DNA of 64,000 bases from Bacteroidales bacterium (GTDB lineage: Bacteria; Bacteroidota; Bacteroidia; Bacteroidales; VadinHA17), in NCBI GenBank assembly GCA_049294075.1, contig JBAQCK010000138.1, forward strand, positions 38,361-102,360, written 5' to 3'. The position numbers and the translations under genes were made by a program. How positions within the stretch are numbered: position 1 is the first letter of the stretch; every line of letters begins with the position of its first letter. A model generated the notes under the pieces. That model did not search any database. It was not told the origin of the DNA and saw only the letters and a program-made list of their open reading frames with translations. This document shows positions 3,944-44,620 of the stretch, one piece after another.

Positions 3944-3966
3944 TTCACTTTGAAAATCAGAAAAAT

Positions 3967-16900: not shown

Positions 16901-17371
16901 GTAAGGGACAGGAGTGGTGCCGAAATAATAAGGTTTATCTATGAAGATTCCGCGCCCTGGCCTGATGGTGCCGACGGAGACGGCTTTTCAATGGCCTCGG
17001 CAGCTGTCAATCCTGCCGGTGATCCGGGTGATCCTTCATACTGGACTCTTTCGGTTGAGAAGGACGGTAATCCATTTGCTGACAACGTTATGACCCCGGA
17101 TGTTCCGATTGATCCGGCTCCGGATGGATCACTTCTTGTATATCCGAATCCGACTACCGGAATTGTGACGGTTCATCTGTTTACCGATGAAGTACTTGAA
17201 GAAATGGATCTGGAAATACACTCAGCAGCCGGTAAACTGATGAAAAGACTTGAAATAGGAAATCCGGGGCTAATTGATCTTAAATCTGAAGGACTTCCGG
17301 CAGGATTCTATATCTTAGGGGTCAAAACAGCAGATTATTCAATTAAAACTGCAATCATACTGACAAAATAA
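13955..17371 (+). CDS. CotH kinase-family protein with lamin-tail domain and T9SS C-terminal sorting domain
   Basis: CotH core (YVNAKGHGLGWERECSFEL...LRIRGGYSRDDAFPKHAFRLFF). Two xYYTLDGSxP modules. LTD-like segment (ITELNYHP...EFIEFKNTG). C-terminal LLVYPNPTTGIVTV...TAIILTK. The start is either TTG 13955 or ATG 13976. Confidence 0.8.
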   Translation: MKISKSLMPGKEKYCSLLLLFILFALIESPLNAQIDFSYQSDYYFLKGKDAVSLPATWKDPGFDCTSWNWGKAPFRYGNGAGGTELTDMQNSFTTLFLRSEFDCQNKDLLKEIVIAADFDDGFIIWINGSEALRTNSPSAPSYNSVAPANHESGTGEYFTLDATEVDLVNGTNYIAIQGFNVSLNSTDFYLDFEIHAEISLPQLTDTLGLDFSVKSGFYDSPFSLSVSSPDPALEITYTLDGSNPQNSPTSFVVPNPALILIDPESTEGRPAAPSVTVRASASRTGMKPAMSSTRTYIFPEKVRTQKWPGGNWPATSINGQIIDLEMDPEVVEDPLYSPRLTGSLLGIPSVSIVTDNRNLFDPSSGIYVNAKGHGLGWERECSFELIYPDGREGFSINAGLRIRGGYSRDDAFPKHAFRLFFREKYGYDKLRYPLFGDEGVDVFDKIDLRAEQNYAWSNGQSNNSMVREVFSRDTQRDMGQPYTRSRYYHLYLNGMYWGLFQSQERSEARYGQSYFGGSEDDYDVIKVNTENGYLVEATDGTLDSWRVLYNMCTKGFTSNAEYFSIEGKDAWGKPVIGGEVKIDLDNLIDFMSVIFYTGNFDSPTAVFMQNKKANNFYAIDDRNDKSAGFKFFIHDAEHSLFDEAHSPGTGLFEDRVNIGTRTDALRMEVSDLTRFHPQWIHFRLSDNPEYRIRFADRAWRHFSDTGVFAPDRVLDRLEKRISEADIAVVAESARWGDAIRSGAPYTKDNNWIPEINKIRNRFIPERTRIVINQLKQAGLYPLIKAPVISAENGIVSRDVMPIIGSVHVTIGNPNPAGTIYYTLDGSDPRKIGGGVNKGVAFSLDKVSMELNESTVIRARILSSGEWSAIVHANFIKQPEDYSGLGITELNYHPPDIINGYDTLSGKDLEFIEFKNTGNHSINLGGLEIDSAVHYKFPENCLLPPKQFFVIASKPSNFFTHYGMLPSGNYEGNLSNAGEEVLVRDRSGAEIIRFIYEDSAPWPDGADGDGFSMASAAVNPAGDPGDPSYWTLSVEKDGNPFADNVMTPDVPIDPAPDGSLLVYPNPTTGIVTVHLFTDEVLEEMDLEIHSAAGKLMKRLEIGNPGLIDLKSEGLPAGFYILGVKTADYSIKTAIILTK

Positions 17372-19282: not shown

Positions 19283-20230
19283 TCAAACCAGGATCTTTGT
19301 AGTAAGGTTGGTGATGCTTTTCCGGATGTCAAGGAACATATCGCCGTCCCTGCTGTCATCCTGCTCGACGATCATGTACTTCATCCCTGCCACGTCTTTC
19401 GCTGCAATGATCTCCTTGAAATTGACTACACCTTCTCCGACCGGTGCGACGTTATCCTTTACAACATCAAAGTAAGGAGGAAGCTGCTGATAACCGTCTT
19501 TCAGGTGGTAAATAGGGAATCTTCCGGGATATTTGTTGAAGATATCCACCGGATTATGACCGGCCTGTGTTACCCAGAACATATCCATCTCCATAATCAC
19601 CAGATCCTTATCCAGTTCAGCGAGCATCACATCGAAATAGGGGACTTTTCCCTCCACTGTTGCAAACTCAAAATTGTGGTTATGATAACCGAACTGCAGT
19701 CCGAATTCCTTCATTACCTTTCCAATTTCATTCCAGTTTGCGGCCATTTTCTGGTAAGTGGCTATTGAGTTTCGCATCTCCTCAACTATCCATGGCTGGA
19801 TGCAGTATTTGGCTCCGATAATGGCATGATCCTCAGCCATCTTTCTGGCACTATCGAGAGTAACGCCTGCTCCCTCAACCTGGGTGTGGCTGCTTAAAAT
19901 CTCCATTCCAAGATCATTCACAAGTTTCTTAAAGTCGGCCGGTGCATAGCCATAAAACTTGCCATCGACATAATCAGCAAGCTCTACATACTTGTAACCA
20001 AGGTCGGAAACCTTTTTCAGTGAACCAGGAGCATCTGTTGCCATCGCATCCCTGATTGTATAAAGCTGAAGGCCGAGATTAAATGATTTCGGATCGACGA
20101 TTACAGGTTCCGGAGCCTTCGCGGCCTTATTCGAGGCGTTCCGGCAGGAAGACTGTGATAAAACGAAAGCTCCGAGAGCGCCAGCAGCTGACACTCGCAG
20201 AAATTCTCTCCTGGATTGTGATTTTTTCAT
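19283..20230 (-). CDS. TAT-exported sugar phosphate isomerase/epimerase (xylose-isomerase-like TIM barrel)
   Basis: Twin-arginine signal SRREFLRVSAAGALGA. The TIM-barrel family assignment comes from overall pattern only. Confidence 0.65.
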   Translation of the reverse strand: MKKSQSRREFLRVSAAGALGAFVLSQSSCRNASNKAAKAPEPVIVDPKSFNLGLQLYTIRDAMATDAPGSLKKVSDLGYKYVELADYVDGKFYGYAPADFKKLVNDLGMEILSSHTQVEGAGVTLDSARKMAEDHAIIGAKYCIQPWIVEEMRNSIATYQKMAANWNEIGKVMKEFGLQFGYHNHNFEFATVEGKVPYFDVMLAELDKDLVIMEMDMFWVTQAGHNPVDIFNKYPGRFPIYHLKDGYQQLPPYFDVVKDNVAPVGEGVVNFKEIIAAKDVAGMKYMIVEQDDSRDGDMFLDIRKSITNLTTKILV

Positions 20231-20594: not shown

Positions 20595-21772
20595 ATGTCC
20601 GGAATTATCATTATCATGACCATCATTCTTGTTTCATCGTGCGGTTCGAGGCCGTTATCGGAGAAAAAGACTGATACAGAGTTGAAGTGGTCGGTCAGGA
20701 TGGCCAACACGGTCATCAACAGGTCTGACAGTCTTGTCTTTTATGTCGACCGGCACCCAAATGGGCATATGATGTTGCTTTCCTGTGAATGGGCATGGAC
20801 CGTCTGGGAGCTGTTGATCCCTTATACTCCGGATACATGGAGGAATGGGTAGATTATTTCGTACAGCCAGATGGCAGTGTTCTTGATTACAGAAAAGAGG
20901 AATATAACCTTGACAGGATTTTTCCCGGCAGGAACGTGCTGACGGTTTACAGGAGGAGAGGGGATGCAAAATACAAGACTGCCCTGGACGGATTAATTGA
21001 CCAGCTCCGCGATCATCCTAAAACCCAATCGGGCGGTTACTGGCATAAAAAGATATACCCGTGGCAGATGTGGCTTGACGGGATCTTCATGGGATCGACC
21101 TACATGGTTCAGTATGCTTCCGAATTCGGCGCACCGGAATGGTTTGACGTTGCCGTGAACCAGGCAGTGATGGCTTATGAGAAGACACTCGATAAGGAAT
21201 CGGGATTACTTATGCATGCCTGGGATGAAAGCAGGCAGCAGAAGTGGTGCGATCCTGAAACAGGCCGTTCTCATTATCCATGGAGTCGTGCAACTGGCTG
21301 GTATCTGATGGCCCTTACGGATATCCTGGAATATCTTCCTGAGGATCATCCCGGAAGGGTCGATTTGCTCAGGATATTACAATCCACGTCTGAAGCTCTC
21401 CTGAAAGTGCAGGATCCAAATACCGGGCTCTGGTTCCAGGTGCTGAATCAGGGCGGGAGGGATGGTAATTATGTTGAAGGATCAGGTTCGGCAATGTTTG
21501 CTTATGTTTTTGCCCGTGAGGCAAACAAGGGATTTCTCGATAAGACTTACCTGGAAATCGCTGAAAAGGCATTTGACAACATAGTAAAGGAACTAATTAC
21601 AATTGATGAAAGAGGCAACCTGACAATGCATAATATAGTCGGAGGATGCGGTCTGGGAGGGAATCCATACCGTGATGGTTCATACGAATACTACGTCAAC
21701 GAAAAACGTGTTGACAATGACACTAAAGGTGTGGCTCCCTTTATTCTGGCAGCGCTGGAACTGGATAAATAA
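20595..21772 (+). pseudogene. GH105/GH88-type unsaturated (rhamno)galacturonyl/glucuronyl hydrolase, disrupted
   Basis: Lipoprotein signal plus N-terminus lie in frame 0. The GH-like sequence PKWAYDVAFL continues in another frame after the A3 run at 20759-20761, then meets an in-frame TGA at 20786-20788. The remaining 327 aa are intact (YWHKKIYPWQMWLDGIFMG...). Confidence 0.6.
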
Positions 21773-21775
21773 AGA

Positions 21776-23044
21776 CTACAGGAATATCCTTTTTATGTGT
21801 CGTTCGTACATGTTCTCAAAGACACATTGGGAGACAATCTCCTTGTACTCATCAAGCAGCCTGTAAAAATCATCCATTTCGTGAGCGGCCAGCTTGTAGG
21901 CAACATGAACCAGTTGCCGCATATTCGGATTATAATCGCGGTTCGACTGATCGTGCCGGAGCGATGATGAAAATTTCCTGCTGTTCCATGAACGCACCTC
22001 TCCCGCCGAGGGCAGGAGAGATGTATTTATGTCAATCACATCGGCATAGGGGGCACATAGCTCCTCAATCTTTTCAAGTGCTTGTATGTAAATGGATAAG
22101 GCAAAATCAAGAGCCTCTCCTCCGGCTTCTGCAAGTCCGATTACCTCCTCGAGCCATGTGGTTCCGGCAGTTTTGAGATGCACCCCCTTGTCATGTTTTT
22201 TGAGGATAGAACCGATGTGAGGATACAGGGCAAATTTGTCAGAACCGGAATGAATGCTGATCTTCAGTTCGGGTGGCAGTCCGAATTTTTTCACTGCATG
22301 ATCGATGACCAGAAGATCCTCCTCGAACTCAACGGCAAACTCATTTGCATCACCAACATAGTCAACTCCCTTGTTGAATCTTCCCGAGAATTTCGGAGCG
22401 ATGGTCTGGACCGGTACTTTTTCATTTCCCAGCATGAGCAGGATGAAAAACAGATCCACAGGCGACTGGGGCTTGGCTACTTCATCCATCGATACTTCGG
22501 TGATGAAGTTGCCGGCACCCTTTGCTTTTTCAATCTTCCTGTAAATCTCGCCTGCTTTTTGCGCAGCATAGAGATAATTTTCAGCTATCCCCGTCAACTG
22601 GTCAATGGAACATTTAACCGGTCTTTTGATACCCGGCACTTCGATCCTGCCGGTGTATTTCTTTGCCTTTTCGATGAATTCGCCGACTTTTGAATCAGCT
22701 GCACGCTTCCCAATATAAGAAGCGACGTCGATGGTGAAGAAGTCGGAACTCGATATAAATTTGTCGACCGTATCAAGATTTATATGATCGGCATCGACAA
22801 AATAGGGTTCCGCAAAACCGGATGCCTTTGTGACGGCATCAGCCTCCTTTCTTACATCCTGGGGCTGGGTGCCGATAATCATGTGTTCCCTGTTTGACTT
22901 GTTCCATACAGGTGTAATTCCGGCACCATTTTTCCCGGCCTCGATAATTGCTTTAAGCTGGGCATGGCCCTGGTGGCCAAAGCGGTCACCCATCCCCATT
23001 GAATATTTCCCTAATTTCTTCATTACCTGGCTATAAGTTTTCAA
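21776..23044 (-). CDS. putative tagaturonate/fructuronate epimerase (UxaE-like)
   Basis: YSMGMGDRFGHQG N-terminal motif, TIM-barrel-like length, and position in the hexuronate operon. Assignment from memory of the family. Confidence 0.5.
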   Translation of the reverse strand: MKTYSQVMKKLGKYSMGMGDRFGHQGHAQLKAIIEAGKNGAGITPVWNKSNREHMIIGTQPQDVRKEADAVTKASGFAEPYFVDADHINLDTVDKFISSSDFFTIDVASYIGKRAADSKVGEFIEKAKKYTGRIEVPGIKRPVKCSIDQLTGIAENYLYAAQKAGEIYRKIEKAKGAGNFITEVSMDEVAKPQSPVDLFFILLMLGNEKVPVQTIAPKFSGRFNKGVDYVGDANEFAVEFEEDLLVIDHAVKKFGLPPELKISIHSGSDKFALYPHIGSILKKHDKGVHLKTAGTTWLEEVIGLAEAGGEALDFALSIYIQALEKIEELCAPYADVIDINTSLLPSAGEVRSWNSRKFSSSLRHDQSNRDYNPNMRQLVHVAYKLAAHEMDDFYRLLDEYKEIVSQCVFENMYERHIKRIFL

Positions 23045-24443
23045 CGCGTTTCATTTTGGGAACAAGGAAGTGCATCAGAATCCAGGCCAGGATGTAAGCT
23101 ATTCCACAGAATATAAACATAATACTGTATCCGACTTCTGTTTTATCGAGAGCTGTGTAATGCTTCAGCAGAAGACCTGCCGCCTGCGCAACAAGGATAC
23201 CGCCAACTGCACCTGCCATACCTCCGATACCGGTGACGGATGCCACGGCTTTTTTAGGGAACATGTCGGTTACAGTTGTAAATATGTTTGCAGACCATGC
23301 CTGGTGAGCTGCACAGGCCAGTCCGATAACAAGAACTGCATACCATGTATTAAACTGTCCGAGCCAACTTGCCAGAAGAACTGAAAGCGGAAACAGAGCA
23401 TAGATAAACATCGATAGTTTCCTGGCCTTGTAGGTAACCATTCCGCTGTTCATGAATTTCTTCGGCAGCCAGCCGCCGAAGATAGATCCGACGGTGGCAA
23501 TTGTATAAACGACTGCCACTGCGAATGTCCAGCTTATAACGCCGGGAATGTCAGCCCCGGTGCCCGCGTAAGTGGGATTCATTGTTTTGAATTCAAGTAT
23601 CTTCCTTGCATTTTCTCCGTTAAGGAAGGCTGGTAACCAGAAAAGGTAGAACCACCACACGGGGTCGGTGAGGAACTTTCCGAAGAAGAAGGCCCATGTC
23701 TGACGTTTCGCAAGAAGTATCACCCATGGAACCTTTTCTGTCTGGCCTTCAACTTCTTTCTTTTTTTCTTCTTTTTCGTCGATGTCGCTGTGGATGTAAT
23801 CATATTCAGCCTGAGACAGGATACCTGCCCTGAGCTTTTGTTCAGGAGAGGCATAGGTGCGGAACCAGAATAACAGCCAGATCAGTCCGATCACACCGAC
23901 AAATATGAATGCCACCTGCCAGCCCCAGTGCACCGCGATCCATGGAACGAAAAGCGGGGTGAGGATGGCTCCGACGTTGGTTCCTGAGTTGTAAATACCT
24001 GTGGCAAGTGCTCTTTCCTTCTTTGGAAACCATTCTGCCATAGTCTTGTTGGCGGCAGGGAAGTTACCTGCTTCAGTGAAGCCCAGAGCTGCTCTCCATA
24101 TACCAAAGGTGAAAGTGTTATATGCCAGAGCGTGGCCTATCGCCGCAATGCTCCAGCCAAGAAGCGAAAAGGCATATCCTCTTTTGGTCCCGATCCAGTC
24201 GATGAACCTGCCTGCAAGTGTCATACCTATGGCATAGGCAATCTGAAAACTCATGACGACCCATGAATAATACAATTCCTGGTTTGCCTTGTCGGGTCCG
24301 AAAATGCCATCTTCGGCCAGAGTGGGTTTAAGAAGACCAAGAACGTTCCGGTCGAAATAGTTCACTGTGGTTGCGAAAAAAACAAGAGCACAGATTGTCC
24401 ACCTGTATTTTCCAATTGTCTCATTGATTGAAGCTGCTGACAT
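23031..24443 (-). CDS. exuT: MFS hexuronate transporter
   Basis: 12-TM MFS protein. N-terminal FFATTVNYFDRNVLG is typical of the ExuT/ACS family. Confidence 0.8.
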   Translation of the reverse strand: MSAASINETIGKYRWTICALVFFATTVNYFDRNVLGLLKPTLAEDGIFGPDKANQELYYSWVVMSFQIAYAIGMTLAGRFIDWIGTKRGYAFSLLGWSIAAIGHALAYNTFTFGIWRAALGFTEAGNFPAANKTMAEWFPKKERALATGIYNSGTNVGAILTPLFVPWIAVHWGWQVAFIFVGVIGLIWLLFWFRTYASPEQKLRAGILSQAEYDYIHSDIDEKEEKKKEVEGQTEKVPWVILLAKRQTWAFFFGKFLTDPVWWFYLFWLPAFLNGENARKILEFKTMNPTYAGTGADIPGVISWTFAVAVVYTIATVGSIFGGWLPKKFMNSGMVTYKARKLSMFIYALFPLSVLLASWLGQFNTWYAVLVIGLACAAHQAWSANIFTTVTDMFPKKAVASVTGIGGMAGAVGGILVAQAAGLLLKHYTALDKTEVGYSIMFIFCGIAYILAWILMHFLVPKMKRVENL

Positions 24444-24463
24444 AACATCCGGATTAGGTAGGC

Positions 24464-25918
24464 TTAAACATTATAGGTTGTTGATGCGGTTGATCCTCCG
24501 CGGCCGGTCCAGTTGGTATGGAAAAATTCTTTCCTGGGCTTGTCGATGCGTTCATAGGTATGGGCACCGAAGTAATCCCTCTGGGCCTGAAGCAGGTTGG
24601 CCGGAAGATTTTCGCATCTGTATCCGTCAAAATAGCAGAGCGCCGAAGACATGGCTGGCACAGGAATCCCGTTGACGAGAGCGGCAGAGATAACATTTCT
24701 CCATCCGGCCTGTGCCTTCTCAACCTTTGTCTTGAAGAACGGATCGAGAAGCAGGTTGGGAATATCCTCATTGGCATCAAATGCTTCCTTTATCTTTCCG
24801 AGGAATGCTGACCTGATTATGCAGCCACCCCTCCACATCAGGGCTATCCCACCGTAATTCAGTTTCCATCCGAATTCCTGAGCTGCAGCTCTCATCAGGG
24901 AATAACCCTGTGCGTATGACACGATTTTCGAGGCGTAAACTGCTTCTTTGAGGTCAGTCACAAATGATTTCAGATTGCCTTTGAATACTTTGGCCGGACC
25001 TGTGATTATCTTCGATGCAGCCACTCGTTCATCTTTCAGTGCCGAAAGACATCTCGCGAACACGGCTTCGCCTATCAGGGTAAGTGGGATACCGAAGTCA
25101 AGCGCAGTTACCGCGGTCCATTTACCGGTGCCCTTCTGACCGGCAGTATCAAGGATTTTATCGACCATTGGTTCTCCGTCTTCATCCTTGAAGGCAAGAA
25201 TATCCCTTGTTATTTCAATCAGATAACTGTCGAGGTCCCCCTTGTTCCATTCCCTGAACACAACGTGCATCTCATCGGCGTTCATTTTGAGAAGATCCCT
25301 CATAATCTGGTAAGCTTCGCAGATAAGCTGCATATCGCCATATTCAATACCGTTATGCACCATTTTCACGAAATGGCCTGCGCCATTTTCACCCACCCAG
25401 TCACAGCATGGAGTTCCGCCGTCAACTTTTGCGGCAATAGCCTGGAAAATTGGTTTGACTTCGGGCCAGGCAGCAGGTGAACCTCCGGGCATGATGGACG
25501 GTCCGAGAAGTGCTCCTTCCTCTCCGCCTGAAACACCGGTTCCGATGTATAGAAGTCCCTTGCTTTCAACAAGGGCTGTTCTTCTGTTTGTATCAGGGAA
25601 ATGAGTGTTTCCGCCGTCAATGATAATATCGCCCTTTTCAAGGAGGGGGATAAGTGAGTTGATCATGTCGTCAACAGCACTTCCGGCCTTTACCATTATC
25701 ATTATTTTCCTTGGCCTTTTTAGTGACTTAACCAACTCTTCCAGGGAGTGGGCTCCGACAATTCTTTTTCCTGAGGCCCGGCCTGACAGGAAATCATCAA
25801 CCTTTTGAAGCGTGCGGTTGTACACTGTGACCTGGAATCCTTTGCTCTCCATGTTGAGAACAAGGTTTTCGCCCATCACAGCCAGTCCGATCAATCCGAT
25901 ATCCGATTTTGTGTTCAT
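24464..25918 (-). CDS. gnd: 6-phosphogluconate dehydrogenase (decarboxylating)
   Basis: GLIGLAVMGENL Rossmann motif, IIDGGNTHF, and full-length 6PGD C-terminal domain. Confidence 0.93.
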   Translation of the reverse strand: MNTKSDIGLIGLAVMGENLVLNMESKGFQVTVYNRTLQKVDDFLSGRASGKRIVGAHSLEELVKSLKRPRKIMIMVKAGSAVDDMINSLIPLLEKGDIIIDGGNTHFPDTNRRTALVESKGLLYIGTGVSGGEEGALLGPSIMPGGSPAAWPEVKPIFQAIAAKVDGGTPCCDWVGENGAGHFVKMVHNGIEYGDMQLICEAYQIMRDLLKMNADEMHVVFREWNKGDLDSYLIEITRDILAFKDEDGEPMVDKILDTAGQKGTGKWTAVTALDFGIPLTLIGEAVFARCLSALKDERVAASKIITGPAKVFKGNLKSFVTDLKEAVYASKIVSYAQGYSLMRAAAQEFGWKLNYGGIALMWRGGCIIRSAFLGKIKEAFDANEDIPNLLLDPFFKTKVEKAQAGWRNVISAALVNGIPVPAMSSALCYFDGYRCENLPANLLQAQRDYFGAHTYERIDKPRKEFFHTNWTGRGGSTASTTYNV

Positions 25919-25968
25919 AAAAATATGTTTTTCAATTAATTATAAATTTGTCTCTTCGTATAAAAGCT

Positions 25969-26964
25969 CTATGTTTTAAGCCCTGTTCCCCGATAGTATT
26001 CCCTTACAACCTCATCCAGCACCCAACTGGTTCTCGCAGCCGTTGCTCCTGTGCTTACAACATCCCCGGCGCCTGAAAGGGCCCTGACGATTTGTTCTAT
26101 AAGGTAGAACTGGATATTTTCAGGTCTTTCATTCACAAATTCCTGTGTTCCGGCGGAATTGACAAGTACGATCGGGTCGTATGTAAAAGTAGAGGTTTTT
26201 ATAATTCCTTTTTCACCCGCTATTTCAAAATAATCCCTGTTTGCTTCCCGGGAAACGCTGAAACTCCATATTCCGGTTCCGATTATATTGTCACGGAAAA
26301 GAAAGCTGGCAGCAACGAAATCCTCAGCCTTATACAGCTGGCCCTGGTTGGCGGCAAGGGCCGATACTTTCAGGACAGGGCCGAAAAGATAGTCAAGGAA
26401 ATCAAGCTGATGTGAACCGAGGTCAAAGAAATGGCCCGCACCGGAGATTTCAGGGATGACACGCCACGGCAGATTTCCTGATTTTTCATTTTCTGAAGCA
26501 TAATTATAAATCTGGAAATTTGTGAATCGCGGTTTCCCTATTTCGCCGGCATCGATAAGTTTTTTTATAAGCCGGAAACCGGGTAGAGTTCTTCTGTAAT
26601 ATGCAACGTAAACCGGGATGCCTGTAAGTTCAGCCATCTCATTTATCATGACGCACTCCCTGTAATTTGCAGCCATTGGTTTTTCAATATAAACCGGCTT
26701 GCCGGCTTTGAGAGCCCTGATGGCGTATTCGGCATGACTTCCCGGGGGAGTGGCTATGTATACGGCATTTACCTCATTGTCGTTGATGAGTTCATCGGGG
26801 TCGGAATAAAATCTTGGTACATTATGTCTCCTTGCATAGTCTTCGGCCAGGGCTTTGTCACGCCGCATCACGGCGACAAGCCTCGAACCGGCCACCTTGC
26901 TGAATGCCGGACCGCTTTTTTGTTCTGTGACTTTGCCGCAGCCTATTATCCCCCAGTTGATCAT
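25969..26964 (-). CDS. Gfo/Idh/MocA family oxidoreductase
   Basis: WGIIGCGKV Rossmann motif and the EKPMA motif. Confidence 0.85.
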   Translation of the reverse strand: MINWGIIGCGKVTEQKSGPAFSKVAGSRLVAVMRRDKALAEDYARRHNVPRFYSDPDELINDNEVNAVYIATPPGSHAEYAIRALKAGKPVYIEKPMAANYRECVMINEMAELTGIPVYVAYYRRTLPGFRLIKKLIDAGEIGKPRFTNFQIYNYASENEKSGNLPWRVIPEISGAGHFFDLGSHQLDFLDYLFGPVLKVSALAANQGQLYKAEDFVAASFLFRDNIIGTGIWSFSVSREANRDYFEIAGEKGIIKTSTFTYDPIVLVNSAGTQEFVNERPENIQFYLIEQIVRALSGAGDVVSTGATAARTSWVLDEVVREYYRGTGLKT

Positions 26965-28232
26965 TTGAGCTTGTCTTTAGCCGCCCAAAGTCCCAGCGCG
27001 GGATTTGAGATATAGTAAATTTCCTCACCGTCAGGCATACTGTTCACACCTTCGTGCAGTAGGGCCGGATCATATTTCTTTATCTTGGTCTCAAGGCTGG
27101 CGTATTTGAAATTGACCGATTCAATTTCCTGCCTTGTAAGGTTGCCCGGACAATAGGTTATTGAGAATCTTCCTTCCGAACTGCCGTGAATAAGGTGTGC
27201 TGCAGCACTAAGATTGTCCATCAGTTCCGGATTCTGGTCGAGCGCCTTAAGTGTGGCGGGGGTTCCCCTGTAGCCATATTTCCTTATAAGCCTGTCAATC
27301 TCCTTGTCCTCCCCAAACTCACTCAGTCCGGGTGCAAGTATAATCAGTTCGCCATTGTCAGCCATCGCCATCCTGGTCCGGTAAATGCTTTTGTTGCCGA
27401 GCCAGGTGCTTTTGAACTCAGAGGGATCGAGATAAACGACTGCCTTCTTTATCGGCTTGTCGAGAACTGTAAAATTGACCTTGATTGAAAGTTCAGAGGC
27501 CAGTCTGAACACTTCGTAGTCGTCGCCAATGAAAAGTCCCCGGATCACAAGTTTGCCGTCATCATCGCGGCCAATGACCGTCTGAATATAAACAACCGGC
27601 AGTTCCTTAATGAAGCTATCGGAAGCATAGTTGAGCAATCTTCTTACCGGAGTGTCAGCTTTGCCCATCATCCGTTCCATACCGTAGACAGCTCCTACGA
27701 AATGGCTTTTGTTGATCCCTTCCGGACCACCTGTTCCGATAAACAGGTTCTTGTTATAGTTGGCCATCCCCACCACCTCGTGGGGCACAACCTGGCCAAT
27801 TGAGATAATAAGATCGTGCCTGCCGTTTACCAGAAGCTTGTTGAGCTGAGCCGGCCAGGAGTAGCTGAGCTTTCCTTCGGTGATTTCGCTTATGAATTCG
27901 CCAGGAACAGTTCCCACAGTTACAACATCATTCCTCCAGTCGTGAACCCTGAACAACTCTGCAGGGACCCCTCTGAACATTTCAGAAATCTCAGCCGGTG
28001 ACATTGGAGAGTGGGTGCCCAGGGCCGGTAGTATGTCGGTCAGGTTCTCCTTGTAATACCGGTGAACGAGAGTGGTAATGTCCCCGGCCCGGGAGTGGAA
28101 CCTGGTGAAATCAGGAGGCAATGCAAGTACTTTTTTGCGCTGCCCCAGCTTCACGAGTGCTGAAAAGACTCCATACTCAAGTTCATTTGGGCCGATTACT
28201 GTATTTTCCGAACCGAATTGGTAGTATATCAT
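26961..28232 (-). CDS. LarA-family (DUF2088) putative nickel-pincer 2-hydroxyacid racemase/epimerase
   Basis: The segment IGQVVPHEVVGMANYNKNLFIGTGGPEGINKSH matches the LarA PH...G..K......H spacing. 423 aa. Confidence 0.6.
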   Translation of the reverse strand: MIYYQFGSENTVIGPNELEYGVFSALVKLGQRKKVLALPPDFTRFHSRAGDITTLVHRYYKENLTDILPALGTHSPMSPAEISEMFRGVPAELFRVHDWRNDVVTVGTVPGEFISEITEGKLSYSWPAQLNKLLVNGRHDLIISIGQVVPHEVVGMANYNKNLFIGTGGPEGINKSHFVGAVYGMERMMGKADTPVRRLLNYASDSFIKELPVVYIQTVIGRDDDGKLVIRGLFIGDDYEVFRLASELSIKVNFTVLDKPIKKAVVYLDPSEFKSTWLGNKSIYRTRMAMADNGELIILAPGLSEFGEDKEIDRLIRKYGYRGTPATLKALDQNPELMDNLSAAAHLIHGSSEGRFSITYCPGNLTRQEIESVNFKYASLETKIKKYDPALLHEGVNSMPDGEEIYYISNPALGLWAAKDKLK

Positions 28233-28278
28233 TTCTTTTTCTTTTATGTCACACTAAAATTCATTCGTCAGTTTCTTG

Positions 28279-28362
28279 CACGGCGTGCGGCTTGCGGTTT
28301 TCGGCTTATGCGACTTTCCTGCTTTACTGCCGACCGCACACTGCCAACTGCCAACTTCTGCG
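28279..28362. repeat. degenerate tandem heptamer tract
   Basis: One 7-nt register throughout: cacggcg tgcggct tgcggtt ttcggct tatgcga ctttcct gctttac tgccgac cgcacac tgccaac tgccaac ttctgcg. Confidence 0.7.
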
Positions 28363-28368
28363 GGTGCC

Positions 28369-29205
28369 CTACACTCCACTAAAGGCGCTGAATCCGCCGT
28401 CGACCGGGATAATGACTCCGGTAACGAACTTCGACAGGTCGGAAGCCAGGTAAAGGAGGGTCCCGGTCAGTTCTTCCGGAGTTCCGAATCTTTCCATCGG
28501 AGTGCTTCCAAGTATTTTCCTGGTTCTGGCAGTGGGTTCTCCGGTTTTTTCATCCATAAGCAGGAACCTGTTCTGGTTCGTGAGAAGAAATCCCGGTGCA
28601 ATGGCATTAACTCTGATGCCTGTTTTCGAGAAATGCACAGCCAGCCATTGTGTGAAATTATTAACAGCTGATTTTGCGGCTGAATATGCAGCTATCTTGG
28701 TAAGAGGCCTGTAGGAGTTCATCGATGAAATGTTGATTATAACCCCTGTTTTATTCTTTACCATATCGGTTGAGTACACCAATGTCGGGATGAGAGTCCC
28801 CTTGAAGTTAAGGTCGAATACCTTGTCAAAACCTTCAAGTTTCAGTCCGAAGAATGTATCGTCGGGGTCCTCGGTACCATCCATTTTTTCAACCTTTGTG
28901 GTAGCGGCCGGAGAATTTCCTCCGGCGCCGTTCACCAGGATATCGATAGCGCCGAACTTCTCGTTTATGATTTTCTTTGATGCCAATAGTGATTCCTTGT
29001 CGAGCACGCTGGCAGGGAGCCCTATTGATTGTGTTCCGAACTCCTTCTGGATTTCAGTTGCAACTTTCACTGCAGCTTCCTGGTTGAGATCAATGATCAC
29101 AGTCTTTACTCCCTGGGATGCAAGTGATCGGGCCATTTCTGAACATATGAGACCTGCGCCGCCGGTGATAACCGCTGTTTTTCCTTTAAGATTTAATTCG
29201 TTCAT
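28369..29205 (-). CDS. SDR oxidoreductase, probable fructuronate/mannonate reductase (UxuB-type)
   Basis: TGGAGLICSE cofactor motif, YSAAK catalytic motif, and a position next to uxaC. Confidence 0.6.
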   Translation of the reverse strand: MNELNLKGKTAVITGGAGLICSEMARSLASQGVKTVIIDLNQEAAVKVATEIQKEFGTQSIGLPASVLDKESLLASKKIINEKFGAIDILVNGAGGNSPAATTKVEKMDGTEDPDDTFFGLKLEGFDKVFDLNFKGTLIPTLVYSTDMVKNKTGVIINISSMNSYRPLTKIAAYSAAKSAVNNFTQWLAVHFSKTGIRVNAIAPGFLLTNQNRFLLMDEKTGEPTARTRKILGSTPMERFGTPEELTGTLLYLASDLSKFVTGVIIPVDGGFSAFSGV

Positions 29206-29229
29206 GTTTAAAAATATTTATTGACAGTC

Positions 29230-29258
29230 CGGCATCCTCAGGTTTTTCCCGGATGCCG
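29230..29258 (-). promoter_or_regulatory. intercistronic hairpin between uxaC and the SDR gene
   Basis: CGGCATCC / GGATGCCG 8-bp stem with a 13-nt loop. Confidence 0.4.
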
Positions 29259-29279
29259 CCCTGCCGGAATGATTTAATG

Positions 29280-30677
29280 TTAGAATCCGAAGTATTCTTT
29301 CGCGTTTTTGTAGGATACACCTTCGATCAGAGGTCTTACAAGTTCATCCTCATCGGGTATGTTTCCTTTTTCTATTTCAGAACCGATATAATTACACAAT
29401 ATTCTCCTGAAGTACTCATGACGGGGGAATGAGAGGAAACTTCGGGAGTCGGTGACCATCCCCACGAATCTTCTCAGCAGTCCGAGAGAAGCGAGGTCCC
29501 TGAAGTGTTTTTCCATCCCGTTTTTCTGATCGAGGAACCACCATGCTGCACCGTACTGCACTTTAACTGCCCCGGAGCCGTCGTTGAAGTTGCCTGCCAT
29601 AGTGATCATTAGTTCGTTATCGGCAGGATTAAGATTGTAAAGGATTGTTTTTGCAAGCTGATCCGAATCATCGAGCGCGTCAATGAATCTTGACATTCTG
29701 AAAGCATCCTGAGGTACACCGATGGAATCCCATCCCGTATCGGGACCCATTTTCCTGAACATTCTGGAATTGTTGTTTCTGAGCGCGCCCACATGGAACT
29801 GCTGGGTCCATCCTCTTTTGTGATTCATCCTGCAGAGCTCGAGCATTATGGCCATCCTGTATTTTTCAGTTTCATCGGCAGAAACCTGCTGTCCCTTTAA
29901 AATTGACCTGAATATAAGGTCCGCTTCCCTCTCGCTGCACGGCGAAAAGAAAAACCTCTCGGATCCGTGGTCGGAGAGGCGGCATCCCATTTCATGGAAA
30001 AAGGCATGCCTTTCGTCCAAAGCCTCTGTCAGGGCTTCAAAACTTCCGATTTCCTTTCCGGTGACTTTTTCAAGCTTCAGTATATACTCTCTGAATTTAT
30101 CCGGGTCATCAGTTTTGATTACATTGTCGGGACGGAAGGCCGGAAGCATCTTAATCTCACTGCTGCCTTTCATCTGAGTGTGGAATTCGAGGGTGTCAGC
30201 CGGATCGTCAGTAGTGCAGACAACTTCCACATTATTCTTTCTGAGTAGCGACCTGATGCTGAATTCCCTTGTTCTGAGCATTGATGATGCTCTTTCATAG
30301 ATCTCAGCGGCATTGGATGGTGAAAGGAGGTCATAAATCCCGAAATACCTTGCCAGTTCAAGATGAGCCCAGTGGTACAAGGGATTTCCAATTGTTGCAG
30401 GCAGGGTCTCAGCCCACTTCTCAAATTTCTCTTTCGGAGGGGCTTCGCCTGTACAGTAAAGCTCGTTAATACCATTCATTCTCATGGCCCTCCATTTGTA
30501 ATGATCGCCGTCGAGCCATGCCTGGCCTATATTATCAAAGCAGATGTCACCGGCAATCATCGAGGGCGATAAGTGGCAATGAAAATCGATGATTGGCTGA
30601 TTTTCTGAAAATTCATGATAAAGTCTCCTTGCTGTCTTTGTTTCCAGCAGAAAGTCGTCGTTTATAAATCTTTTCAT
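29280..30677 (-). CDS. uxaC: glucuronate isomerase
   Basis: MKRFINDDFLL...IIDFHCHL N-terminus. Full length at 465 aa. Confidence 0.92.
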   Translation of the reverse strand: MKRFINDDFLLETKTARRLYHEFSENQPIIDFHCHLSPSMIAGDICFDNIGQAWLDGDHYKWRAMRMNGINELYCTGEAPPKEKFEKWAETLPATIGNPLYHWAHLELARYFGIYDLLSPSNAAEIYERASSMLRTREFSIRSLLRKNNVEVVCTTDDPADTLEFHTQMKGSSEIKMLPAFRPDNVIKTDDPDKFREYILKLEKVTGKEIGSFEALTEALDERHAFFHEMGCRLSDHGSERFFFSPCSEREADLIFRSILKGQQVSADETEKYRMAIMLELCRMNHKRGWTQQFHVGALRNNNSRMFRKMGPDTGWDSIGVPQDAFRMSRFIDALDDSDQLAKTILYNLNPADNELMITMAGNFNDGSGAVKVQYGAAWWFLDQKNGMEKHFRDLASLGLLRRFVGMVTDSRSFLSFPRHEYFRRILCNYIGSEIEKGNIPDEDELVRPLIEGVSYKNAKEYFGF

Positions 30678-30793
30678 CCCTGGTTGTATATAATTTGATT
30701 ATTCTTGATCAGCTGCTTTAAGCGAAAAAATGAGTTATTAAAAATAGCAAATAAAATCAGAGGTAAGGACAAAAAGCCGTTAAGGTAAGTTAA

Positions 30794-30900
30794 TTTTCAT
30801 CATAATCTAATTTTGATTTTAGCGGTATGATGGAACCGCGCATGATTGAAAATTATTTTCATTAAGTGTTTGTGTTTGAAATCAATCATGTGGGTTTCAT
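30794..30900 (+). repeat. conserved ~100-bp intergenic element, copy B
   Basis: Hairpin arms are 30832-30849 and 30882-30898. The flanking and loop blocks AATTTTGATTTTA and GTGTTTGTGT are shared with copy A. Confidence 0.8.
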
Positions 30901-31034
30901 ATATTTCCGGTGAGGAGCCAGGGGCATCCCGGGTAACAAATATGGATTTTCTCTTCATCATTTCAGCCAAAGATTGTATTTTTAACATTCCAAATCAGGT
31001 CTTGTCATTTTTAACAATCAAAATTTATTGAATT

Positions 31035-31871
31035 ATGAAGATTGAGTTGAGATATGCAGTGCATCCTGACGATTTCAGGTCGTATGATACCGGAAAACTG
31101 AGGAAGGAATTCCTGATAGAGAAGGTGTTTGTTCAGGATGAGATAATGCTTGTTTATTCAATGTACGACAGGTATATCGTGGGTGGCGCCATGCCTGTTG
31201 ACAAAGTCCTTAAGCTTGAGTCGGCTGATGATCTTAAGGCTTCTTATTTTCTCGAAAGAAGAGAAATGGGAATGATCAATGTCGGTGGTGAAGCCGAAAT
31301 TGAAGCAGGCGGGGTGACATATAATGTCGGGTTCAAGGAGGCGCTATACCTTGGCAGGGAGACAAATGACGTGTTTTTCAGATCGAAGGATGCCTCAAAT
31401 CCGGCCAGATTGTATATTAACTCGGCTCCGGCCCACCATAAGTATCCTTCAAGAAAAGTCACCCTGAGGGATGCAGAGATTGTCACACAAGGATCCGCCG
31501 AAGCCTCCAACCACCGGACGATCAACAAGCTTATTGTGAACAGCGTCCTTCCGACATGCCAGCTTCAGATGGGGATGACGGAACTTAAGACAGGCAGTGT
31601 ATGGAACACCATGCCTGTTCATACCCATAACCGCAGGATGGAAGCATACTTTTACTTTGAACTCCCGGATAAGCAGGGTATTTGCCATTTCCTGGGGGAC
31701 CCTGACGAAACCCGTCATATCTGGATGAAAAATGAGCAGGCGGTGCTGTCACCTTCGTGGAGCATTCATAGCGCCTCAGGCACATCCAGTTATACATTCA
31801 TCTGGGGAATGGCCGGTGAGAACCTTGATTACAGCGATATGGATGTCCGACATCCCGATACTCTTAAATAA
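31035..31871 (+). CDS. kduI: 5-dehydro-4-deoxy-D-glucuronate isomerase
   Basis: 278 aa, MKIELRYAVHPDD..., cupin His cluster (MPVHTHNRRMEAYFYF). Confidence 0.9.
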   Translation: MKIELRYAVHPDDFRSYDTGKLRKEFLIEKVFVQDEIMLVYSMYDRYIVGGAMPVDKVLKLESADDLKASYFLERREMGMINVGGEAEIEAGGVTYNVGFKEALYLGRETNDVFFRSKDASNPARLYINSAPAHHKYPSRKVTLRDAEIVTQGSAEASNHRTINKLIVNSVLPTCQLQMGMTELKTGSVWNTMPVHTHNRRMEAYFYFELPDKQGICHFLGDPDETRHIWMKNEQAVLSPSWSIHSASGTSSYTFIWGMAGENLDYSDMDVRHPDTLK

Positions 31872-31877: not shown

Positions 31878-32681
31878 ATGGAAACTGTAAAGGAATTATT
31901 TGATCTGAAGGGCAAGGTGGCCCTTGTTACCGGTGGAACTCATGGTATCGGACTGGCAATTGGCCTTATGCTGGGAAAGGCGGGAGCCAGGGTGTGCGTT
32001 AATGATCTCAGCACTGAGAAGCTTGCCCTGTGCAGGGAGGCATTCGGGAAGGAGGGTCTGAGTGTTTACACGCTGGTGTTCGACGTCACCGACGAAAAGG
32101 ATGCAGACAGGGGGATATCACAGATTGAAGCCGATGAAGGTCCTGTTGACATCCTTGTAAATAATGCCGGAATAATAAAAAGAATACCGATTCTCAGCAT
32201 GCCCGTCGCGGAGTATAAACAGGTCATTGACGTGGATCTGGTTGCCCCTTTCATTGTCTCCAGACGTGTAGCCCCGAATATGATATCAAAGCGAAGCGGG
32301 AAGATAATCAACATGTGTTCTATGATGAGCGTTTACGGCCGGAATACCGTGTCAGCTTATGCTTCAGCAAAGGGAGGTCTTGCGCTTCTTACAAGGAACA
32401 TGACATGCGAATGGGCAAAATACAACATTCAGATTAACGGGATCGGTCCCGGATACATTGAGACCGCTCAGACAGGTCCGATTCGTGAAAACGGTCATCC
32501 GTTCAACGACCTGGTAATGACCAGGACTCCGGCAGGTAGATGGGGTCAGCCTGAGGACGTGGCCAACGCTGCTTTGTTTCTTGCATCAAGGGCAAGCGAT
32601 TTCGTCAACGGGCATATTCTGTTCGTCGACGGAGGCATTCTTGCCAACTTCGGCTACGTGAAAGGAGAAAACGATTTATAG
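31878..32681 (+). CDS. kduD: 2-dehydro-3-deoxy-D-gluconate 5-dehydrogenase (SDR)
   Basis: TGGTHGIG, YASAKGG, and immediately downstream of kduI. Confidence 0.8.
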   Translation: METVKELFDLKGKVALVTGGTHGIGLAIGLMLGKAGARVCVNDLSTEKLALCREAFGKEGLSVYTLVFDVTDEKDADRGISQIEADEGPVDILVNNAGIIKRIPILSMPVAEYKQVIDVDLVAPFIVSRRVAPNMISKRSGKIINMCSMMSVYGRNTVSAYASAKGGLALLTRNMTCEWAKYNIQINGIGPGYIETAQTGPIRENGHPFNDLVMTRTPAGRWGQPEDVANAALFLASRASDFVNGHILFVDGGILANFGYVKGENDL

Positions 32682-33506
32682 ATTATTTTCCGCCTCCCTG
32701 GCTCTTGCATTGAAATACAGAATGCTTGAGAAGATCGGAAGCAGAGGCAGGGTGATGGCGTTCACCACAGCCGACAGAATAATGTAAAGCGGCCTGGTGC
32801 TGATTTCAAGGGCAGCCGTGGCCTCTTCAGGATTGCTGACCGCCGAAAGGAAACTTCCTGTAAATGGCAGCAGTACCAATCCGGACAAAAGAATCGATAT
32901 AACAAGCAAAAGAATTATGAAAACCGCTGTCCAGCCGAGGTTGTTCCAGAAATTCCGGTGGGCAAGGGTTGCCGTTCTGACTATTGCATGAGCGATAATG
33001 GGCCCTTCAACCATCATTACAGGAAGTATGAAAAGATAAAGGGTCATGATATATACGCCTGCAAATAAAGCCCCGACAAACAGGAGAATAAGTCCGAGGA
33101 AAAGGGCAAAAGAGCCCACAAACGCCAGTATTACAAGTATAAGGAGATAGGGGACATAGTATCTCAGCGATTTCACCAGGCACTTCAGGAAATTGTATTC
33201 CCTGTCAAGCGGATTGAACATTACAAAATACTGCAGAATAACCGTGAACAGCACATTTACAAGTGTGAAAATGATCATCGGCCATTTGAATTCATTAAGC
33301 TTATTCATCATTTCATCCATATTGAAGGTCTGGTAATCGCCGATATCTATCCTGATGAATGTGCCCAGATACTGAATGACAAGTCCCATTGCAAATGAGA
33401 TAAGGAAAAGCCCCACGAATCTTTTCTTATAAAAATCCCACAGCGAATTCATTGCACTGTCGATAGTATGAGCCTTGTACAGGGGGTGATTTTCTATTGG
33501 TTCCAT
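32676..33506 (-). CDS. polytopic membrane protein, unknown function
   Basis: Six or more hydrophobic helices. No catalytic motif recognised. Confidence 0.6.
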   Translation of the reverse strand: MEPIENHPLYKAHTIDSAMNSLWDFYKKRFVGLFLISFAMGLVIQYLGTFIRIDIGDYQTFNMDEMMNKLNEFKWPMIIFTLVNVLFTVILQYFVMFNPLDREYNFLKCLVKSLRYYVPYLLILVILAFVGSFALFLGLILLFVGALFAGVYIMTLYLFILPVMMVEGPIIAHAIVRTATLAHRNFWNNLGWTAVFIILLLVISILLSGLVLLPFTGSFLSAVSNPEEATAALEISTRPLYIILSAVVNAITLPLLPIFSSILYFNARAREAENNL

Positions 33507-33556: not shown

Positions 33557-34156
33557 TTACTTTCCCGGCCTCCAGCCGCGGATCACATTTGCGAAAGGGA
33601 ATATATGACTTTTCTTGCGGGGATTGAATATACCCTCATTTACCGACTTTACGTCCTCGATGGTGTAAAAAGCCCTGGAGTTGAAAGAAGTGATAATATT
33701 TATTACGTTCTTAAGTTCACTGCGGTGAATGATTGAATAGATTATGTGGATTTTTTCCTTTGCACCGTGCGCTTCAATGGTTGTGGCTCCGAATCCGTTT
33801 GAATTCAGATTTCTGACAAGCTCCATGCCGTTCTCGCTTACAAAAACCCTTATCATCTGGATACCCATTGCCAATCGTTCCTCAATTTTCATCCCGACAA
33901 AATTCCCTGTGGCGAATCCGGCTGCATAGGCAACGTAATTAATGTAGTTATCAAGATTCTGCATGATCTTGCTGATTGCAATGATCCATATGAGTACTTC
34001 AAAGAATCCGAGAATCGGAGCTGCTTTCCTGTTCCCCTTCGAGACGAAGATGATTCTCATCGTGCCTATCGATACATCGCAGATCCTTGCCAGAAATATC
34101 AGGATAGGCATGACAGCATAATCGAAAATTTCTGAGTCGAAAAATGATGTCTCCAT
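33557..34156 (-). CDS. UPF0316/DUF2179-family membrane protein
   Basis: N-terminal 3 TM segments (LIFLARICDVSIGTMRIIF) plus a C-terminal soluble domain. Confidence 0.6.
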   Translation of the reverse strand: METSFFDSEIFDYAVMPILIFLARICDVSIGTMRIIFVSKGNRKAAPILGFFEVLIWIIAISKIMQNLDNYINYVAYAAGFATGNFVGMKIEERLAMGIQMIRVFVSENGMELVRNLNSNGFGATTIEAHGAKEKIHIIYSIIHRSELKNVINIITSFNSRAFYTIEDVKSVNEGIFNPRKKSHIFPFANVIRGWRPGK

Positions 34157-36150: not shown

Positions 36151-36582
36151 CTAATCGGCAGTGTAGTTAAGCCGGAGGTCAAGCTCGCGGTCGTAAACGT
36201 ACCAGCAGGCATCCTCGCACTGCGTCCTGGTAAATTTTGTCCTTGGAATTGCTGAGTCGACTGCTGTATAGGTTTTGCCATTTCTCTCATAACTGGCAGT
36301 CGCCGTGTATTTCTTATTTAGCCTGACATCTAACCTGTAGATGTCAGAGGGGGGATTTACCGTGTTCAGAAGCACCCCGTCCTCCAGTTCGCCCTCATAC
36401 ACATTAATTGTCGCAGCCGGATTGTTCTCCGAGAATTTGATAAGCAGATAGTCGCTTGCAGGCTCATTGGAAGTGCAATCGCCGCAATCGGCAATCCATC
36501 CCTGTTCCTCGCACGAGAACGCAGCGGCGAGAACCAGGAAAAGAAAGATACCAAGGCAATGTTTCGTGATTTTCGCTACCAT
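36151..36582 (-). CDS. hypothetical lipoprotein
   Basis: Signal peptide plus lipobox (AAAFSC). 143 aa. Confidence 0.6.
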   Translation of the reverse strand: MVAKITKHCLGIFLFLVLAAAFSCEEQGWIADCGDCTSNEPASDYLLIKFSENNPAATINVYEGELEDGVLLNTVNPPSDIYRLDVRLNKKYTATASYERNGKTYTAVDSAIPRTKFTRTQCEDACWYVYDRELDLRLNYTAD

Positions 36583-44189: not shown

Positions 44190-44219
44190 TTCCACCAGGA
44201 AAACAGCGAGTGATCCGTG

Positions 44220-44582
44220 CTATTCTTCCTTCTCCTCGCCGTTCCTGCCCGACGACCCCAGAAAGAGCATTTCATTCAGGACAATCTCCGTCACATACTT
44301 GGTCACACCCTTCTTGTCCTCATAGCTCCTGTACACAAGTCTTCCGTCGATGGCCACTTCCTTGCCTTTCCTAAGGTACTTGGCAGCTCGCTCTGCAAGG
44401 CCATTCCATGCTACGATATTGTGCCAGGTCGTCTCCTCAACCTTCTGACCTTCAGTGTTCTTGTAGGCATCATTGGTGGCAATTGTGAAATTCACAACCT
44501 TTTTCCCGTTTTCAAGGTTCTTGATCTCGGGATCCTGCCCCAGATGCCCGATAAGCTGTACGCGGTTCCTTAAATTGTTCAT
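44220..44582 (-). CDS. ssb: single-stranded DNA-binding protein (short form)
   Basis: OB-fold N-terminus MNNLRNRVQLIGHLGQDPE. 120 aa. Confidence 0.85.
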   Translation of the reverse strand: MNNLRNRVQLIGHLGQDPEIKNLENGKKVVNFTIATNDAYKNTEGQKVEETTWHNIVAWNGLAERAAKYLRKGKEVAIDGRLVYRSYEDKKGVTKYVTEIVLNEMLFLGSSGRNGEEKEE

Positions 44583-44620
44583 GACTAAAAGATTTTGGTT
44601 TTACATGTTTTTAACTGATA

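Follow-up and report, generated by a model that had tools for sequence, protein, structure and literature searches.

A Bacteroidales hexuronate operon proposed to feed the pentose phosphate pathway through a candidate nickel-dependent hexonate 2-epimerase

The stretch of DNA analysed here, referred to as the window, comprises 64,000 nucleotides from an uncultured Bacteroidales bacterium of the VadinHA17 group (assembly GCA_049294075.1, contig JBAQCK010000138.1, positions 38,361 to 102,360 of the forward strand). Seven co-directional open reading frames (ORFs) occupy positions 21776-30677 of its minus strand. They encode UxaC, a short-chain dehydrogenase/reductase (SDR), a LarA homolog of group 18 (LarAH18), a Gfo/Idh/MocA oxidoreductase (GFO), Gnd, a major facilitator superfamily (MFS) permease and a UxaE-like protein. 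The families of UxaC, UxaE, fructuronate reductase, 2-epimerase and Gnd are thus found together in one co-directional cluster. It is proposed here, with a probability of roughly two in three, that the cluster is a hexuronate operon carrying pectin-derived uronic acids from the upper steps of the isomerase pathway into the pentose phosphate pathway via mannonate, LarAH18 and 6-phosphogluconate. A first-pass annotation of the same stretch had described seven minus-strand genes, and the ORFs agree with that description to the nucleotide. The 4-bp overlap and the gaps of at most 136 bp given there were also recovered: the LarAH18 and GFO genes share positions 26961-26964 (ATGA), and the remaining gaps measure 74, 136, 50 and 20 bp. 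The 14-bp overlap reported between the MFS and UxaE-like genes stands when the TTG start at 23044 is used; with the in-frame ATG at 23023, a 7-bp gap is obtained in its place.

Protein families were assigned by Pfam and NCBIfam against curated cutoffs, and gene content and family membership are thereby shown directly. The first gene of the operon is uxaC (29280-30677, minus strand, as are all seven), a glucuronate/galacturonate isomerase gene that matches PF02614 over its full length with 648 bits and the NF002794 equivalog with 600 bits (cutoff 387). The SDR gene (28369-29205) matches NF006132 with 391 bits (cutoff 281) as a D-mannonate oxidoreductase, that is, a fructuronate reductase of UxuB/UxaD function, and the Asp at the end of its second beta strand (IIDLN) suggests NAD(H) as cofactor. 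LarAH18 is encoded at 26961-28232 and the GFO, a cytoplasmic protein, at 25969-26964; the latter matches PF01408, PF22725 and PF02894, with no NCBIfam equivalog above its cutoff. The gnd gene (24464-25918) encodes a decarboxylating NADP-dependent 6-phosphogluconate dehydrogenase, as seen from 777 bits against TIGR00873 (cutoff 427) and the NRT motif. The MFS permease gene (23031-24443) and the UxaE-like gene (21776-23044) complete the operon. The assignments are firm for UxaC, the SDR, Gnd and LarAH18, and weaker for the permease and the UxaE-like protein.

The permease had been called exuT by the first-pass annotation. It is an MFS permease of the anion:cation symporter type (ExuT/DgoT-like; PF07690, 192 bits), and its subfamily score of 186 bits falls under the TIGR00893 cutoff of 395. 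The permease is a probable hexuronate importer. A TRAP transporter occupies the same position in about nine related loci, and this substitution supports an uptake role for the gene. The UxaE-like protein is 422 residues long, and its match to PF16257 (177 bits, cutoff 27) covers profile positions 79-473. Its best PDB match is 6IL9, the UxaE of C. laeviribosi (E = 6e-25), with the alignment beginning at UxaE residue 92. Residues E53 and D86 are the counterparts of Glu126 and Asp159, which are catalytic in the Cohnella enzyme (PMC11194214), and all of the 41 homologs compared share E53, D86, H87, H265 and H289. With the PF16257 score and the catalytic residues kept, the earlier family call held up. 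The assignment to the family is sound, and the protein is a short-form member with a predicted function as tagaturonate/fructuronate epimerase.

LarAH18 matches NF052594, named "nickel-dependent putative hexonate epimerase", over its full length with 655.5 bits (cutoff 500), and the Lar_N domain PF09861 with 32 bits (cutoff 23.3). NF052594 represents group 18 as defined within the LarA superfamily by Desguin et al. (2020, PMC7583248), for which hexonate epimerase activity was hypothesised from the signature and the gene context. The protein was aligned with L. plantarum LarA and one group-18 sequence, using site positions from Dataset S2 of that paper (PMC7583248). Residues D41, R44, H74, H151, K161 and H177 correspond to D72, R75, H108, H174, K184 and H200 of LarA, and all six are invariant in 81 of 81 homologs. 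In LarA, H108 and H174 are catalytic, K184 tethers the cofactor and H200 is a nickel ligand (PMC7583248). The published group-18 signature (D R H H E V K H V W L N K S A A L I H; PMC7583248) is complete, with HEV at 151, WLGNK at 277 and SAAAHLIHG at 342. The sole PDB match is 4NAR, T. maritima TM0442/GntE2 (E = 5e-37). Interconversion of D-mannonate and D-gluconate has been demonstrated for GntE1, GntE2 and LarAH15, a Phytophthora homolog (PMC7583248; PMC11770544). Of the substrate-pocket signature of GntE groups 19 and 20, LarAH18 has E175, W294, K298 and A356 and differs at three other sites. LarAH18 is a putative nickel-pincer-dependent hexonate or phosphohexonate 2-epimerase, with its substrate assigned by homology and context.

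Species-representative genomes were scanned for LarAH18, which returned at least 582 relatives, and the best 80 loci were analysed with 10-kb flanks. Counts refer to loci with room on the needed side (59 downstream, 70 upstream, 44 fully flanked). Across phyla, the 80 loci display a recurring core in the order SDR-(kinase)-LarAH18-(GFO)-(PdxB-like)-gnd. Most of the loci come from uncultured Bacteroidales; the other sources are Marinilabiliales-type isolates (Natronoflexus pectinivorans, Alkaliflexus imshenetskii, Geofilum, Carboxylicivirga), Ignavibacteria/Melioribacter, Saprospiraceae and Acidobacteria. Carriers in culture include N. pectinivorans DSM 24179, A. imshenetskii DSM 15055, Geofilum rubicundum JCM 15548, Carboxylicivirga linearis and Melioribacter roseus. 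Within three genes of LarAH18, gnd is found downstream in 53 of 59 loci, an SDR upstream in 63 of 70, and a PfkB kinase or PFK-like gene upstream in 34 of 70. The fully flanked loci contain uxaC in 37 cases, a UxaE-like gene in 31, kduI in 27, GFO in 18, eda in 12 and uxuA in 2. Transketolase directly follows gnd in 3 loci, and neither zwf nor pgl accompanies gnd. In the clade of the window, the order is kduD-kduI, divergent from uxaC-SDR-LarAH18-GFO-gnd-MFS-(LacI)-UxaE, and an adjacent kinase is usually missing. A member of this clade, UBA6117 (contig DIWB01000030.1), shares 90% nucleotide identity with the window in a colinear arrangement. Because dozens of species-level genomes have the gene order in common, the arrangement of the operon cannot be ascribed to chance; the co-occurrence in other Bacteroidota that had been left for checking was thereby found.

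A kinase step is required between a hexonate and Gnd in the proposed route, and the survey points to a separate, highly conserved KdgK-like clade of PfkB kinases, here termed PfkB2. About 25 genomes carry this gene between those of the SDR and LarAH18. Across phyla, the members of the clade share 72-81% identity with one reference copy (locus L048) and about 28% with the KdgK adjoining eda in the same loci; the closest PDB relative is T. maritima KdgK. A PfkB2-centred metagenome scan revealed many orthologs away from any LarAH18 cluster, and a pgi-PfkB2 pair with a 4-bp overlap recurs in another lineage (L099:6607-9074). In three relatives within the clade of the window, PfkB2 lies two genes past UxaE. 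Since PfkB2 is often unlinked from the LarAH18 cluster, the absence of a kinase from the window is not anomalous. By analogy with these genomes, an unlinked PfkB2-type kinase is most likely encoded elsewhere in the genome of the window. PfkB2 is a candidate for an orphan mannonate or gluconate kinase. In some loci, a gene resembling pyrophosphate-dependent phosphofructokinase and a haloacid dehalogenase (HAD) hydrolase gene precede LarAH18, replacing PfkB2. A PdxB-like D-2-hydroxyacid dehydrogenase gene is located between LarAH18 and gnd in 11 loci (for example L064:11272-12432), and it scores 439 bits, just above the 4-phosphoerythronate dehydrogenase cutoff.

Of the 34 loci with a GFO gene, 33 have it directly 3' of LarAH18; a 4-bp overlap is the most frequent junction, which suggests translational coupling. 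Four GFO-centred look-ups all place the gene between Lar_N and 6PGD. The protein carries an EKP motif at 94-96 and the sequence VAVMRRD after the second beta strand, and has no signal peptide; the Arg-Arg pair suggests that it is NADP(H)-linked. Its best PDB matches are 1ZH8, of unknown function, and the glucose-fructose oxidoreductase of Zymomonas, and it has no characterised close relative. Overall, GFO is present in 34 of 81 loci. Because it is absent from most loci outside the clade of the window, its role is regarded as accessory. A function as NADPH-dependent fructuronate or 2-ketohexonate reductase is one possibility; the enzyme could balance NADPH from Gnd, or salvage a 2-keto intermediate of the nickel-pincer enzyme. 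GFO was also considered as a substitute for the kinase. The two genes are negatively associated when GFO is set against an adjacent kinase (counts 3/15/19/7; Fisher p = 5e-4), an association that is confounded by phylogeny. The candidate was rejected, since GFO and a kinase co-occur in ten recorded loci; GFO is found together with PfkB2 in several genomes and therefore does not replace the kinase.

The operon is bordered by pectin and uronate genes on both sides. On one side, a convergent gene on the plus strand (20789-21772; PF07470, 293 bits) encodes a GH88-family unsaturated uronyl hydrolase. On the other side, a divergent pair on the plus strand consists of kduI (31035-31871; NF002091 equivalog, 424 bits), encoding 5-dehydro-4-deoxy-D-glucuronate isomerase, and a KduD-type SDR gene (31878-32681) that matches NF005488, named gluconate 5-dehydrogenase, with 415 bits (cutoff 369). 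In related loci, this SDR gene is always paired with kduI. The GH88 product supplies unsaturated uronate; KduI and the KduD-type SDR make 2-keto-3-deoxygluconate (KDG). Synteny with kduI-kduD extends to two membrane-protein genes on the minus strand, 32676-33506 (23 related loci) and 33557-34156 (15 related loci); the first encodes a multi-pass protein with no Pfam or NCBIfam match, the second a DUF5698/DUF2179 protein, and both may have a transport function at the uronate locus. ORF 32676-33506 was considered as a hidden kinase and rejected, being a multi-pass membrane protein. Beyond the UxaE-like gene, a xylose-isomerase-like TIM barrel with a twin-arginine/lipoprotein-type signal SRREFLRVSAAGALGAFVLSQSSC is encoded at 19283-20230 (minus strand) and is kept in this position in close relatives. 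This protein is probably periplasmic and therefore lies outside the cytoplasmic pathway.

The 357-bp divergent region between uxaC and kduI (30678-31034) is the presumed promoter and regulatory region. A shared operator was sought in this spacer across 16 orthologous loci, and only AT-rich 9-mers were obtained, namely TGTATTTTT in 9 spacers and TGCTATTTT in 7. A sigma-70 promoter scan of 21000-31500 gave 17 hits versus 13.6 in shuffled sequence, which is not above chance, and the consensus used is unsuited to Bacteroidota. The intrinsic-terminator scan of the same interval gave 12 versus 10.4, with no minus-strand terminator within the operon. No regulator gene is present in the cluster, and neither Rfam nor tRNA scans gave any match in the window.

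The window was further screened by tblastn (E<=1e-3) with genes from related loci as queries, and its other long ORFs were compared with Pfam and NCBIfam. No tblastn match was obtained for kdgK, PfkB2, eda, uxuA, the PFK-like kinase, the PdxB-like dehydrogenase, the HAD hydrolase or LacI anywhere in the 64 kb, and among the other long ORFs the profiles recognised no gene for a kinase, a dehydratase, an aldolase or lar cofactor synthesis. Both screens bear out what the first-pass annotation had said of the window, namely that uxuA, kdgK, kdgA and a gluconate kinase are missing from it. Its further wording, that the operon carries its unusual genes "instead of" uxuA/kdgK/kdgA, is correct for the window and does not extend past it: since KDG is made next door by kduI-kduD, kdgK and kdgA can be expected in other parts of the genome.

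From these genes, the following route can be proposed. Glucuronate and galacturonate would be imported by the MFS permease and converted by UxaC to fructuronate and tagaturonate. The short UxaE would convert tagaturonate to fructuronate, and the SDR would reduce fructuronate to D-mannonate. Inversion at C2 by LarAH18 and the action of a hexonate 6-kinase whose gene lies outside the window would then yield 6-phosphogluconate, the kinase being most likely PfkB2, which adjoins LarAH18 in other genomes. Gnd would convert 6-phosphogluconate to ribulose-5-phosphate, CO2 and NADPH, and the GFO would contribute an accessory redox step, probably NADP(H)-linked. The substrates, the order of the steps and the location of the kinase are predicted from homology and context. 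Membership of LarAH18 in the NF052594 family, its conserved catalytic residues, its relative 4NAR and the strong synteny across phyla support the sequence from hexuronate through mannonate and C2 epimerisation to 6-phosphogluconate and ribulose-5-phosphate, much as it had been suggested at the outset. For the two middle steps, the analysis leans slightly towards epimerisation of free mannonate to gluconate first and phosphorylation second, by analogy with the activities measured in related GntE enzymes.

Several observations weigh against this proposal. A hexonate kinase was not found in the 64-kb window, so that the chain, as far as the window shows it, stops short of 6-phosphogluconate, and larB, larC and larE were not found in it either. 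Group 18 was not among the 13 LarA homologs that were purified and assayed (PMC7583248, Dataset S1), and a literature search found no report of an assayed group-18 enzyme. The pocket of LarAH18 differs from those of GntE1 and GntE2 at three sites, with L rather than T at 295, N rather than A or G at 297, and S rather than R at 262; the native substrate could therefore differ as well. The UxaE-like protein lacks about 78 N-terminal profile positions, full-length UxaE having about 475-490 residues, and it matches no NCBIfam model. Finally, the GFO has no place in the published pathway.

The order of the two middle steps may also be the reverse. An unlinked mannonate kinase (PfkB2) would then produce 6-phosphomannonate, and LarAH18 would act as a 6-phosphomannonate 2-epimerase feeding Gnd. 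Such an order is a real possibility, though the less likely of the two. Extracts of L. suebicus phosphorylate mannonate and then epimerise the product, and without ATP no gluconate arises in them from mannonate (PMC6978723). In about 25 loci the order SDR-PfkB2-LarAH18-gnd is collinear with this reaction sequence; gene order is weak evidence, however. Genes for phospho-sugar-acid enzymes also occur nearby in related loci, among them the PdxB-like homolog (11 loci) and HAD phosphatases, including a 6-phosphogluconate-phosphatase-like one. The KM values of GntE1 and GntE2 for free mannonate are high, at 120 and 17 mM (PMC7583248). Against the reverse order, all of the assayed relatives, GntE1, GntE2 and LarAH15, use unphosphorylated mannonate. 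Moreover, no extra basic residue is present at the published group-18 pocket sites, and the Arg of groups 19 and 20 is Ser here. A more specific form of this idea is that LarAH18 and PfkB2 are the 6-phosphomannonate 2-epimerase and mannonate kinase of the L. suebicus-type pathway described by Valk (2020), with the Bacteroidales GFO as a new NADPH-linked step; this combination is rather unlikely.

A further reading, and an improbable one, is that LarAH18 acts on another 2-hydroxy acid, either converting D-fructuronate at C2 to 5-keto-D-gluconate or using another hexonate such as L-gulonate/L-idonate, and that the GFO or an SDR then reduces the product to gluconate, ahead of phosphorylation and Gnd. 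The difference of the group-18 pocket from those of proven gluconate 2-epimerases is in keeping with it, and Desguin et al. gave the substrate merely as "a hexonate" (PMC7583248). So is the 4-bp overlap between the start of an NADP(H)-type GFO gene and the end of LarAH18. However, the GFO occurs in 34 of 81 loci only, compared with the nearly universal SDR-LarAH18-gnd, and it cannot therefore be an obligatory step. The flanking SDR that scores as gluconate 5-dehydrogenase could also be cited for this reading, but its constant pairing with kduI fits the role of KduD. It is most improbable that gnd is a housekeeping pentose phosphate gene, with mannonate consumed by UxuA-KdgK-KdgA elsewhere and the LarA homolog unrelated: the KDG made next door by kduI-kduD does imply kdgK and eda elsewhere in the genome, and LarAH18 loci include uxuA in 5 cases and kdgK-eda in about 12, but gnd stays near LarAH18 in Bacteroidota, Ignavibacteriota and Acidobacteriota (the 53 of 59 loci above), has no zwf or pgl alongside and in some loci transketolase after it, uxuA is present in only 2 of the 44 fully flanked loci, and gnd is linked likewise in the T. 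maritima pectin regulon (PMC3750489).

Entry of hexuronates into the pentose phosphate pathway via mannonate is well supported and already in the literature, and the window provides a new Bacteroidales example of it rather than a new principle. The canonical (Ashwell) hexuronate isomerase pathway consists of UxaC, UxuB/UxaB, UxuA/UxaA, KdgK and KdgA. It has in common with the window the upper steps, UxaC and fructuronate reductase, and KduI/KduD and GH88 at the flanks are usual pectin/uronate genes. In contrast, the dehydratase, KDG kinase and 2-keto-3-deoxy-6-phosphogluconate aldolase of the canonical pathway are missing from the window, and uxuA is rare in the related loci. The canonical pathway delivers pyruvate and glyceraldehyde-3-phosphate from hexuronates, whereas the hybrid route delivers ribulose-5-phosphate at no net redox cost (PMC6978723).

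The closest known operon is that of T. maritima. In this species, GntE and GntK were proposed to link mannonate to 6-phosphogluconate (Rodionova 2012, as cited in PMC6978723), and the pectin-induced operon of the UxaR regulon reads aldH-pelB-gnd-uxaR-uxaE-uxaD-gntE-gntK (Rodionov 2013, PMC3750489). GntE2 probably lets mannonate into the pentose phosphate pathway (Desguin et al. 2020, PMC7583248). As in the window, Gnd, UxaE, fructuronate reductase and a LarA-family 2-epimerase are gathered in one pectin-linked operon, with a proposed link from mannonate to the pentose phosphate pathway. The T. maritima epimerase belongs to group 20, whereas that of the window belongs to group 18 and has other pocket residues. 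The T. maritima operon includes gntK and the regulator gene uxaR, while the window has no kinase and its cluster no regulator; the window operon in turn adds uxaC, the MFS permease and GFO, and its UxaE is of the short form.

In extracts of L. suebicus, UxaC, UxaE and UxuB convert galacturonate to mannonate, from which 6-phosphomannonate, 6-phosphogluconate and ribulose-5-phosphate are formed in turn (Valk 2020, PMC6978723). The genes of the kinase and the epimerase were not identified in that work, and no LarA-family enzyme was named as the epimerase (PMC6978723). A literature search found mention of these two activities, phosphorylation of mannonate and epimerisation of 6-phosphomannonate, in no other paper. 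The route proposed for the window is alike: UxaC, UxaE and UxuB lead to mannonate, a kinase and a 2-epimerase follow, and Gnd forms ribulose-5-phosphate. The hybrid isomerase-phosphoketolase pathway of L. suebicus is redox-neutral and does not use the enzymes of the lower isomerase pathway (PMC6978723). There, the kinase-then-epimerase order was demonstrated in cell extracts, whereas the system of the window is seen at the level of its genes.

The group 18 of Desguin et al. shows the same context as the window, with an SDR in 36% of neighbourhoods, 6-phosphogluconate dehydrogenase in 32%, a ribokinase-family kinase in 16%, and UxaC, KduI and MFS in 12% each (PMC7583248). That group numbered 25 proteins, its members in the supplement being from Acidobacteria, and the published set lists neither a GFO neighbour nor UxaE (PMC7583248). 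The Bacteroidales clade, which has GFO but no adjacent kinase, represents an arrangement not described before. The LarAH18-gnd module was detected in at least 582 stretches of species-representative genomes, and many of its carriers are anaerobic Bacteroidales, Ignavibacteria and Acidobacteria that live in sediments, peat and digesters. Therefore, nickel-dependent uronate catabolism may be widespread among pectin degraders. A route through ribulose-5-phosphate changes the fermentation stoichiometry and is of interest for the bioconversion of pectin (PMC6978723).

Several other genes of the window deserve mention. At 2304-5748 (plus strand), three adjacent genes resemble an electron-bifurcating [FeFe] hydrogenase of the HydABC type, encoding a thioredoxin-like 2Fe-2S protein, a NuoF-like FMN/4Fe-4S protein and an Fe-only hydrogenase large subunit with a small-subunit domain; this fits a fermentative anaerobe. 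A six-gene complex-I/Mrp-like module at 52550-59871 (plus strand) includes two Proton_antipo_M proteins, a NuoH-like protein, a fused 30-kDa/49-kDa protein and a NuoB-like protein. Its large-subunit homolog (57581-59098) is without the RxCGxC and DPCxxC motifs that ligate NiFe, and the module resembles a complex related to energy-converting hydrogenases that has no NiFe site. A nickel link between this cluster and the operon was considered and rejected on account of the missing cysteine motifs.

A secreted protein of 1138 residues is encoded at 13955-17371 (plus strand), with CotH kinase, lamin-tail, Fn3-associated and chitobiase C-terminal domains and a C-terminal type IX secretion system sorting signal; its gene adjoins a GH35 gene and is kept so in relatives. 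At 44217-45110 (plus strand), three overlapping ORFs of about 120 residues in different frames have essentially no family matches and could represent a frameshifted or decayed gene, or non-coding sequence. On the minus strand, a 479-residue ankyrin-repeat protein (36576-38015) precedes a small ORF (36151-36582) that is Cys-rich and lipoprotein-like and matches no family, and this pair (36151-38015) is kept in 11-12 related Bacteroidales loci.

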